Source of the DNA: a virus
Taxonomy: Duplodnaviria; Heunggongvirae; Uroviricota; Caudoviricetes
Reading direction: 5' to 3' (one strand)
DNA length: 6,329 nt
Virus record (IMG/VR): IMGVR_UViG_2547132488_000017
Coordinates: 1-6,329 of that record
Position 1 is the stretch's first letter. Each line of letters starts with the position of its first letter. The notes under the pieces were generated by a model that had not been told where the DNA came from, made no database searches, and saw only the letters and a program-made list of their open reading frames with translations. Below are positions 2,506 to 3,066 of this stretch, piece after piece. The position numbers were made by a program, and so were the translations under genes.

Positions 2506-2867
2506 GCATTTGAAATAAGCCTTATTGTATTGCAGCACTGGCGTATTTTTTATTACGTGGGAGCAGGTTGTTTTGAAAAAGCATTCTGTTCTCTGGCTAT
2601 GATTTGAGGCCAGGTTAGCCTCAGTGCTGATTTTTCTGCGACAGCAGAATGGTGCATTGCTGGTGGAGATTTTGTATTTCCTGGCAGGGTCGGTGATGCA
2701 TCATTCTGGTGTTGTAAATAACACCACCGGGGTGTTCCTCAGAGCGAGGGTGGTTAAAAGAGTCGGTTTAACGGGAAATCACAGTATTCATACAGGACGG
2801 AATACTTCGGGAGGCACCCGACACCTCGGTTTTATTACAATTAAGAATGTATTTCTTGCATTGACCA

Positions 2868-2892
2868 ACCGCCGTATCCGGCGGTTTTTTTT
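2868..2892 (+). terminator. Rho-independent terminator
   Basis: Stem ACCGCCG (2868-2874) / CGGCGGT (2879-2885), loop TATC, followed by an 8-T run (2885-2892). Confidence 0.8.
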
Positions 2893-3025
2893 ATTCAGAA
2901 TCTCGTTTCTTTATGGTTCGCTGCGGCGGGCCTTTTTTATATCTGCGTTTCACTCAACGTGTATTGAATCTGAATACATCACATAAAAGACATCGGTGGA
3001 TGCCTTCGACGGGGTGTTTTATTAC

Positions 3026-3047
3026 GGGCCGCTGGCGGCCCTTTTTT
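3026..3047 (+). terminator. Rho-independent terminator immediately upstream of the holin RBS
   Basis: GC-only stem GGGCCG (3026-3031) / CGGCCC (3036-3041), loop CTGG, then TTTTTT (3042-3047). The holin SD AGGAG (3054-3058) follows within 7 nt. Confidence 0.8.
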
Positions 3048-3066
3048 ATTTACAGGAGAAAAAAGT

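Follow-up and report, generated by a model that had tools for sequence, protein, structure and literature searches.

A probable tRNA-linked RNA module with an STnc100/PasD-type core between the tRNA and holin genes of a lambdoid prophage

What lies between the tRNA genes and the holin gene of a lambdoid prophage, and is that place empty? The question is raised by a stretch of 6,329 nucleotides (nt), positions 1 to 6,329 of the IMG/VR virus record IMGVR_UViG_2547132488_000017 (Caudoviricetes), referred to here as the window. It covers the part of a phiP27-like lambdoid prophage that is devoted to late regulation and lysis. The interval of interest (2506-3066, 561 bp) extends from the end of a tRNA-Gly gene (2505) to the start codon of a holin gene (3067). 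A preliminary description, drawn from the letters alone, read it as a spacer free of open reading frames (ORFs) that carries stacked intrinsic terminators, in other words an empty cargo slot where Shiga toxin (Stx) phages carry stxAB. It also raised the possibility that the structured sequence between the tRNAs and the first strong terminator forms a discrete small RNA (sRNA). This last suggestion proved essentially right: the window RNA belongs, as a diverged and tRNA-linked member, to a superfamily of prophage sRNAs that is known but not characterised in function. We consider it likely that the interval is a non-coding RNA module made up of a tRNA trailer, a long hairpin (H1), a diverged STnc100/PasD core, a linker and a terminator (T1), followed by two further terminators (T2 and T3), with tRNA-linked biogenesis and action in the manner of PasD. 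A non-coding gap with terminators, taken alone, is ordinary for a lambdoid late operon.

On sequence comparison, the core at 2726-2830 (+ strand) is homologous to STnc100 and PasD. A sensitive Rfam scan gave one meaningful match, in which the full-length STnc100 model (RF02076) aligns with 2701-2896 on the + strand at 28.6 bits (E-value 2.3e-4 in a search of a 571-nt interval, 2.6e-3 over the whole window). AsxR, AgvB, Esr41, IpeX-like, C4 and isrK RNAs gave no credible Rfam match in 2500-3070. For an independent model, family members were collected from IMG/VR by the P5 motif CGGGAGGCACCCGNCNYC, all window-type sequences were removed, and 31 diverse representatives were aligned (alignment A3) and turned into covariance model R1. 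R1 matches the window at 2725-2833 over model positions 1-118 (43.5 bits, E ~3e-9), as well as the relatives in SerU-LTIIb, 683R6, E. coli 042 and ETEC1732 (25-41.6 bits). It also recovers PasD1 and PasD2 of enteropathogenic E. coli (EPEC) E2348/69 at 28.7 bits, though PasD is without the exact P5 motif. The window holds the 13-nt P5 motif CGGGAGGCACCCG; its P1 and P2 align to R1 as well. EDL933 lysogens express 11 copies of the prophage sRNA STnc100 (PMC5331693). In EPEC, PasD1 and PasD2 are abundant sRNAs that associate with Hfq, and their genes lie between Q and the holin/lysozyme genes (PMC8550237; bioRxiv 10.64898/2026.05.13.724894), and their relationship to STnc100 has been stated (bioRxiv 10.64898/2026.05.13.724894).

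The predicted fold has the core architecture of the superfamily, in which P1 encloses P2, one or more variable hairpins, P4 and P5. In the window's own fold, the closing helix P1 pairs approximately 2726-2735 with 2821-2830. Within it lie P2 (CCUC/GAGG, 2737-2749), P3 (~2750-2782), P4 (AGUAUUC/GAAUACU, 2783-2806) and P5 (CGGG-AGGCA-CCCG, 2808-2820). The 3' end is also that of the superfamily: an A/U-rich linker (2831-2866, + strand), variable among relatives with a conserved TGCATTGACCAACCGCC, is followed by the Rho-independent terminator T1 with its U8 tract. So is the location, in the lambdoid late region between Q (3-557) and the holin gene (3067), on the strand of the late transcript; relatives have the same order. 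The minimum free energy (MFE) structure of 2634-2896, folded as a single sequence, reproduces H1, P1-P5 and T1 (z -6.0). Pairs were counted in an alignment (A2) of 47 distinct window-type relatives, termed type A. Standard pairs are formed by 97.6% of cells versus 39-56% in controls with slid partners, and 55 cells carry two-sided changes versus 18.9 +/- 3.1 in shuffles (0/500). P1 and P4 are among the helices with two-sided changes in these 47 relatives. By analogy with PasD, whose seed has the equivalent position (supplement of PMC8550237), the linker is likely to be a single-stranded seed and Hfq-binding region, though the mapped PasD seed (CCUUGUGAG) is not found in it.

The core is preceded by H1, a long imperfect hairpin of about 80 nt (2637-2716, + strand; ~27 + 5 bp) with the invariant apical region TTTGTATTTCCTGGCAGGG. 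Its MFE is -41 kcal/mol (z -7.2, reached in 0/200 shuffles), and the RNAalifold consensus supports it. In the 47 relatives 98.2% of its cells are paired, with 15 pairs maintained through one-sided changes and two through two-sided changes. The stem of ~27 bp has single-nucleotide interruptions and is topped by a 5-bp apical stem; RNase III substrates are double-stranded almost without a break over some 20 bp or more. When type-A bodies were picked by the body motif alone, 37 of 38 carried the exact 19-nt H1 core, so the apical invariance is not an artefact of the search pattern. Rfam matches to miRNA precursors (mir-983, mir-92) reflect only the presence of this hairpin.

H1 is common to type-A relatives and to a shorter type B, and for this reason can be regarded as an independent, portable element. 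Type B consists of the tRNA-Gly trailer and H1, then a short unrelated body (~80 nt) that has a terminator of its own; H1, body and terminator together measure about 170 nt. Examples are L013:91-260, L029, L036, L051, L072, L080 and L099; no Rfam match to the type B element was found, and weak Trp_leader and Phe_leader matches in one such locus are noise. The type-B body contains CCUGGAAAUACA, which is complementary to the invariant H1 loop UGUAUUUCC. In a single locus, L154, the window-type core is not accompanied by the H1 loop motif: the base of H1 (AATGGCGC ... GGTGATGCGC) is retained, and two different short hairpins take the place of the apical part.

How far has this RNA moved from its relatives? 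There is strong evidence, from sequence comparison, that canonical STnc100-family RNAs carry a pseudoknot in which the P4 loop pairs with the strand that follows P2 on its 3' side. Among 27 diverse members, 25 different pairing sequences were found at these places, and the best helix averages 6.8 bp within a sequence versus 4.4 bp between sequences (0/5000 permutations). Example loci outside the window are L183, L189, L191 and L122 of IMG/VR. The Rfam consensus line has no pseudoknot, and the RNAalifold consensus in the 2026 preprint is incapable of showing one. A scan of all column pairs of A2 for a pseudoknot or other tertiary contact was swamped by clade-driven pseudo-covariation and gave nothing usable. 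In some metagenomic viral contigs, STnc100-like cores form tandem arrays with a spacing of ~460-510 nt, and the copies within an array differ (L185 at 4467, 4974, 5438 and 8494; also L129, L143, L153 and L173).

The window RNA is a distinct variant of this family: the pseudoknot and a promoter of its own are missing, and H1 and the tRNA linkage are added. With STnc100 (RF02076; Salmonella and pathogenic E. coli) it shares P1, the P2 hairpin, a variable P4 hairpin, the P5 hairpin, the A/U-rich linker and the terminator, as well as orientation and place in the lambdoid late region. In Stx2 phages the STnc100 copy lies just 3' of stxB, 75 nt downstream of stx2 (PMC12370729). In contrast to STnc100, the P2 and post-P2 region of the window has diverged, no promoter-like sequence precedes P1, the core is preceded by the 80-nt H1, and the element as a whole is fused to two tRNA genes. 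PasD1 and PasD2 (EcOnc13 homologues, 172-173 nt, EPEC E2348/69) belong to the same superfamily, are likewise intergenic between Q and the holin/lysozyme genes and likewise end at a terminator. They differ from the window RNA in the P5 region (GCGGGAGGCGCC) and in having their own promoter, no adjacent tRNA genes and no H1.

Two tRNA genes lie immediately upstream on the + strand. These are tRNA-Thr(UGU) at 2352-2427 and tRNA-Gly(UCC) at 2431-2505, both called by ARAGORN and matched by the Rfam tRNA model (72.2 and 65.6 bits). A moderately conserved trailer of 131 nt (2506-2636, + strand; column identity ~75-98%) connects them to H1. It is swapped for unrelated sequence in the SerU_b/L017 group. 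The segment 2637-2866 is more conserved than its flanks. In a BLAST search, some part of the spacer was matched in 351 of 5426 complete E. coli genomes, 33 of them at >=80% coverage. The commonest footprint covers query positions 1-391, window 2506-2896, from the end of tRNA-Gly to T1; this block recurs at ~90% identity in many of the 351 genomes, and T1 is its right boundary. Carriers of the module include E. coli 042, W, ETEC1732 and phage vB_EcoS-683R6, and phage SerU-LTIIb has two copies. The 19-nt core motif retrieved 101 IMG/VR stretches, and nearly all relatives have tRNA-Gly right next to the module on its 5' side (98% column identity). Outside E. coli, a scan of GTDB species representatives gave E. 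ruysiae only; three other matches, approximately the chance number for a 19-mer in 596 Gb, were dismissed as a sign of spread beyond Escherichia. The module behaves as a unit, since tRNA-Gly precedes nearly all copies, the block 2506-2896 recurs, and T3 stands before two unrelated holins. As judged from these alignments, it travels with the tRNA-Thr/tRNA-Gly pair in Escherichia lambdoid prophages.

How might such an RNA be made? In canonical members, a consensus scan places sigma-70-like hexamers just before P1 in 72 of 106 cases (score >=7), versus 32 of 106 shuffled sequences, and this position agrees with the mapped start of PasD. The same kind of scan found no sigma-70-like promoter 3-16 nt before P1 (A2/T6 in the -10) in the window and none in 38 of the 47 window-type copies, and a sigma-70 promoter inside H1 or right before P1 was rejected on the same grounds. 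The only promoter-like site nearby is a candidate sigma-70 promoter 5' of tRNA-Thr, TTGAAA-N16-TAATAT (2263-2290, + strand; 9/12 matches in the promoter scan). At the same alignment columns its hexamers are identical in ETEC1732 and read TTGCGA-N16-TATCAT or TATTAT in E. coli 042 and 683R6, with diverged flanks. Given the missing promoter before P1 (38/47) and the positionally conserved candidate 5' of tRNA-Thr, the window RNA is probably made from the tRNA-operon transcript.

The closest precedent for this biogenesis is 3'ETS-leuZ, an sRNA-like regulator which is reportedly cut from the trailer of the glyW-cysT-leuZ tRNA operon, as Lalaouna and colleagues are said to have described in 2015. 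It is listed as 3'ESTleuZ in EPEC tables. Each RNA directly follows the final tRNA of an operon and ends at the operon terminator. Whereas 3'ETS-leuZ is ~50 nt long and unstructured bar its terminator, the window trailer is 387 nt long with a long hairpin and a multi-helix core, and its co-transcription with the tRNAs is a prediction. In a lysogen, the promoter at 2263-2290 would give rise to a tRNA-Thr/tRNA-Gly/sRNA precursor that ends at T1, while T2 and T3 would halt residual read-through ahead of the holin and lysis genes. tRNA processing and cleavage at or near H1 would then yield an RNA of ~170-260 nt; in this scheme H1 would be an RNase III site, or a stability element or protective 5' structure. 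The released RNA may act in trans like PasD, by Hfq-dependent base pairing via the A/U-rich linker and U-tail. After induction, Q-modified polymerase from a pR'-like promoter would pass tR', T1, T2 and T3 to reach the holin-endolysin genes.

The terminators themselves are well defined. A scan found eight terminator-like sites in 2150-3200 versus 1.4 +/- 1.5 in shuffles, and 18 in the whole window versus 6.8 +/- 2.5 expected, with all strong ones on the + strand. T1 (2867-2892, hairpin 2867-2886; 8-bp stem, U8; -13.4 kcal/mol, z -3.9), T2 (2915-2938, hairpin 2915-2932; 7-bp stem, U6; -12.0 kcal/mol) and T3 (3026-3047, hairpin 3026-3041; U6; -12.6 kcal/mol) are all on the + strand. Each is a G+C-rich stem-loop directly before a U-tract on the transcribed strand. 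Three within 180 bp form the densest terminator group in the window. The two sites described as strong, at 2868-2892 and 3026-3047, hold up as T1 and T3. T2, listed as a weak candidate at 2919-2938, is on a par with the others at 7 bp and -12.0 kcal/mol, and it is conserved in a subset of relatives. The candidate at 2818-2836 is no terminator, since its bases form the 3' sides of P5 and P1 in the structured RNA. The candidate at 2605-2635 was rightly called weak (z -1.3) and fails as a terminator: its T-run begins 9 nt past the stem and it is not conserved in 683R6 and L099. The corresponding trailer hairpin (2604-2624) was likewise rejected as the terminator of the tRNA operon, being unconserved and having a displaced U-run.

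Conservation separates the three. T1 is kept in 47/47 type-A relatives, with 97.9% of cells paired. T2 is present in 24 of 88 relatives, those with the short form of the T1-T3 interval seen in the window; 56 of the 88 have a long form, in which an insert of ~200 bp lies between T1 and T3 and the T2 motif was not found. In long-form relatives such as E. coli 042 (L004:4390-4640; equivalents in L001, L002 and L005), the insert of ~200-240 bp, which would fall at 2896-2941 and is absent from the window, holds two copies of a stem-loop and then GGGACAA(A/C)GUCC. No Rfam match to it was found; it may be another structured RNA. The T3 motif occurs in 75 of 88 relatives, ahead of two unrelated holins, one of Phage_holin_8 type (MSEPLSG...) and one of class II (MKSMDKL...), and T3 with its leader is conserved in phiP27. 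T3 therefore belongs to the region just 5' of the lysis cassette, whatever the holin type. The non-coding segment before it (2941-3025, + strand) is aligned in all six relatives of alignment A1 and is 86% identical to phiP27 5' of its holin. Its fold is not significant (z -1.3), and no promoter, RNA family or Rfam match of note was recognised in it. A second sRNA between T2 and T3 was rejected on these grounds: an insignificant fold, no conserved promoter found, and a match to neither Rfam nor R1.

The terminator stack proposed in the preliminary description is thus real as far as three strong terminators go; T1 is not simply one of its layers, being primarily the terminator of the sRNA itself. 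From the biology of lambda and the Stx phages it is reasonable to infer that the terminators insulate the lysis genes in a lysogen and that polymerase modified by Q passes them; the pR'/tR'-like unit after Q and the + strand terminators throughout the window are consistent with this. Such a series of + strand terminators is the pattern expected of a Q-antiterminated operon. Further strong ones lie at 973-990, after the TrmB-like ORF, and at 4168-4193, 4604-4625 and 5708-5727, among small ORFs past the lysis cassette. Weak GcvB and OmrA matches at 5599-5734 are merely the terminator at 5708-5727.

Is the place, then, an empty toxin slot? The moron slot of Stx phages (phiP27, phiSTEC1575-Stx2k, 933W-type) follows the order Q, pR'/tR', accessory genes, tRNAs, stxAB and lysis genes. 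The window shares the series Q, TrmB-like ORF, methyltransferase, tRNAs, slot and holin/holin/M15 endolysin, and phiP27 is homologous to it on both sides. At ~93% identity, phiP27 aligns with window 654-2134 and again from ~2973 on; shared on the left are the TrmB-like ORF and the methyltransferase, and on the right the two holins and the M15 endolysin. Between these flanks it carries tRNA-Ile/Arg, stx2eAB and a small ORF; no STnc100-family member was found in phiP27. In phiSTEC1575-Stx2k the order is tRNA-Met/Arg/Arg, stx2kAB, an R1 match, iraM-like and holin remnants, and the same P27-type holin. Alignment to Stx phages thus bears out that cargo occupies this slot elsewhere. The R1 match of the Stx2k phage (32.4 bits) begins 12 nt after stxB and overlaps an annotated 'hypothetical protein'. 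With a family member 12 nt after stx2kB, the stx genes of Stx phages can be placed between the tRNAs and the STnc100-type RNA. In the window only the 131-nt trailer and H1 separate the two, and the trailer is the counterpart of the stxAB position. The window differs from the Stx phages in having no toxin genes, in its tRNAs (Thr/Gly, not Ile/Arg or Met/Arg/Arg) and in a slot that holds RNA genes only. Positional equivalence to stxAB, as first proposed, stands; emptiness does not, the slot being filled by a structured-RNA module whose core is homologous to STnc100/PasD. In phage pPE4 the slot holds TerB and a small ORF. This phage (L226, Actinobacillus phage vB_Apl-pPE4, PP818812.1) has Actinobacillus pleuropneumoniae as its recorded host. 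Its Q-to-lysis region has ~90% nucleotide identity to the Escherichia prophage of the window, which points to an error in the recorded host or to contamination by a prophage of E. coli.

Several observations weigh against a tRNA-linked STnc100/PasD-type sRNA. Its RF02076 score of 28.6 bits falls short of the gathering score of 47, a threshold that also excludes accepted relatives, since PasD1 and PasD2 of E2348/69 reach only 37.7 and 41.4 bits. The R1 score of 43.5 bits is partly circular, the window sharing the exact P5 motif by which the training set was gathered. Pairs with two-sided changes are no more numerous than in shuffles (80/500), and clade structure yields many spurious 'compensatory' column pairs, so that within-group covariation is weak evidence and was weighted lightly. 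The family pseudoknot amounts to only 3 bp in the window type and is not recognisable; a local P3 helix is found instead. Against the genes of the window itself, the linker showed no standout complementarity to translation-initiation regions (all z > -1). The 5' end, tRNA co-transcription, processing at H1, Hfq binding and targets of this variant are all inferred. According to the main rival, the invariant block 2662-2716 is a DNA-level promoter or operator of an independent sRNA that starts just before P1, and the tRNA linkage is synteny. Canonical members and PasD do have their own promoters right 5' of P1, and in sRNA genes it is often the promoter that is conserved best. Two different RNA bodies, types A and B, have the block in common, L044 retains it without the 5' arm and without a tRNA, and in Salmonella ChIP-exo shows RpoD and RpoN binding at STnc100 copies (PMC10794520). 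However, the sigma-70 scan before P1 was negative in 38 of 47 copies, and the resemblance to a sigma-54 promoter (TGGCA...TGCAT, in TGGCAGGGTCGGTGATGCAT at 2683-2702) has a GG-to-GC spacing 3 nt too long and was rejected. The 5' arm moreover co-varies with the block, with AU->GC at columns 12/74 in 10 sequences and UA->CG in L099/L036. On balance this rival is unlikely. A role in cis on the late transcript, as a processing or stability element or by modulating read-through into the holin gene, would fit an element that is always in late-operon orientation, always between Q and the lysis genes, with T3 only 19 nt from the holin start codon; the pseudoknotted multi-helix fold of the canonical family is also unusual for seed-type sRNAs. 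Such a role is improbable in view of the strong terminator that ends every copy, the accumulation of PasD and STnc100 as discrete RNAs in lysogens, and the many Hfq-dependent trans partners of PasD.

If the slot were empty and served only as a terminator stack insulating the lysis genes, whatever lies between the hairpins would be filler under no constraint, or the scar of a recombination event. Three strong terminators in 180 bp, + strand terminators all along the late region, and phiP27, which has no STnc100-like element yet retains the T3 region, agree with this. Filler, however, is not expected to keep a five-helix architecture across divergent prophages. Conservation of 2637-2866 above its flanks, structure maintained in 47 relatives, homology to an sRNA family and the H1 z-score of -7.2 all speak against it, and we give the filler explanation little weight. 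Could the interval instead encode a small protein? It is non-coding and without a conserved ORF, in agreement with the preliminary description: 2506-3066 holds no credible ORF, there being no Pfam match and no frame conserved among relatives. The 120-aa + strand ORF (2624-2986) has no Pfam match, and neither do the remaining ORFs of at least 30 aa in the interval. Across the conserved 257 nt its frame is open in 4 of 47 sequences (the window and its three closest relatives) and broken in 43, with 1-nt indels falling within the best-conserved blocks of the interval, and the ORF passes through T1 and T2. It was rejected as a gene. A Trp-rich, leader-peptide-like ORF of 15 codons within H1 (2649-2696) is intact in most relatives, and at the place in ETEC1732 that is equivalent to the 120-aa ORF the PGAP pipeline called a hypothetical protein of 132 aa. 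The 15-codon ORF is nevertheless without a Shine-Dalgarno sequence, and a 1-nt insertion shifts its frame in L009, L025, L070 and L102; it too was rejected. A small protein from either ORF is very improbable. The 'hypothetical protein' genes annotated over STnc100-like RNAs in ETEC1732 (L005:4118-4516) and the Stx2k phage (L225:4311-4415) are probably false gene calls.

The remainder of the window has the features of a Q-controlled late region. It opens with a Q antiterminator gene of DUF1133/Phage_antitermQ type (Pfam match). Directly after Q, sequence reading placed a pR'-like promoter, TTGATT-N17-TTCAAT (~555-583, + strand), and, ~85 nt 3' of Q, a tR'-like intrinsic terminator (642-666, + strand). 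The latter, AACCCGC-TTTAT-GCGGGTT plus a T-run, is strong and is not listed by the simple terminator scan. The initial transcribed region between the two is conserved, and the whole block (~555-666) is shared with E. coli 042 and phage 683R6, where it lies 3' of their DUF1133-type Q genes. The unit (555-666) resembles the lambda 6S/StxS type of short transcript unit; a weak isrK match from Rfam falls at 591-664 (21.6 bits). The TrmB-like small ORF (789-986) and the DNA methyltransferase gene (1137-2183) separate this unit from the candidate tRNA promoter. Downstream of the interval, the Shine-Dalgarno sequence AGGAGA (3054-3059), 6 nt after T3, precedes the first holin gene (Phage_holin_8, E 1.2e-22, 3067-3459), which is followed by a second holin gene (Phage_holin_3_7, 3449-3724) and the M15 endolysin gene (3727-4104).

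How the variant arose is a matter for tentative proposal. The lineage may have lost its own promoter and pseudoknot and been captured by a tRNA operon, its 3'-trailer product being released at a 30-bp H1 that also serves type B. The parent, a pseudoknotted five-helix RNA beside the toxin slot, may bind a ligand or protein or act in cis on late transcription; it is the pseudoknotted five-helix fold that points to such a role rather than to simple seed pairing.

What does the locus contribute to the biology of these prophages? The immediate pay-off is moderate, given that STnc100/PasD-type RNAs are functionally uncharacterised. Annotation pipelines and Rfam thresholds miss the window RNA, and PGAP puts a probably spurious hypothetical protein over the ETEC1732 copy. 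Since the RNA is missed although 351 of 5426 genomes match some part of the spacer, surveys of prophage sRNAs (Pas, STnc100) undercount the family. The insertion point of the Shiga toxin genes is defined more precisely, between the phage tRNAs and the STnc100-type RNA, and among relatives the recurrent occupants of the slot are this RNA and its terminators, not a toxin, phiP27 itself being without the RNA. If tRNA-linked biogenesis is true, the module would be a phage example of a regulator derived from a tRNA trailer, and H1 would be a portable processing module.

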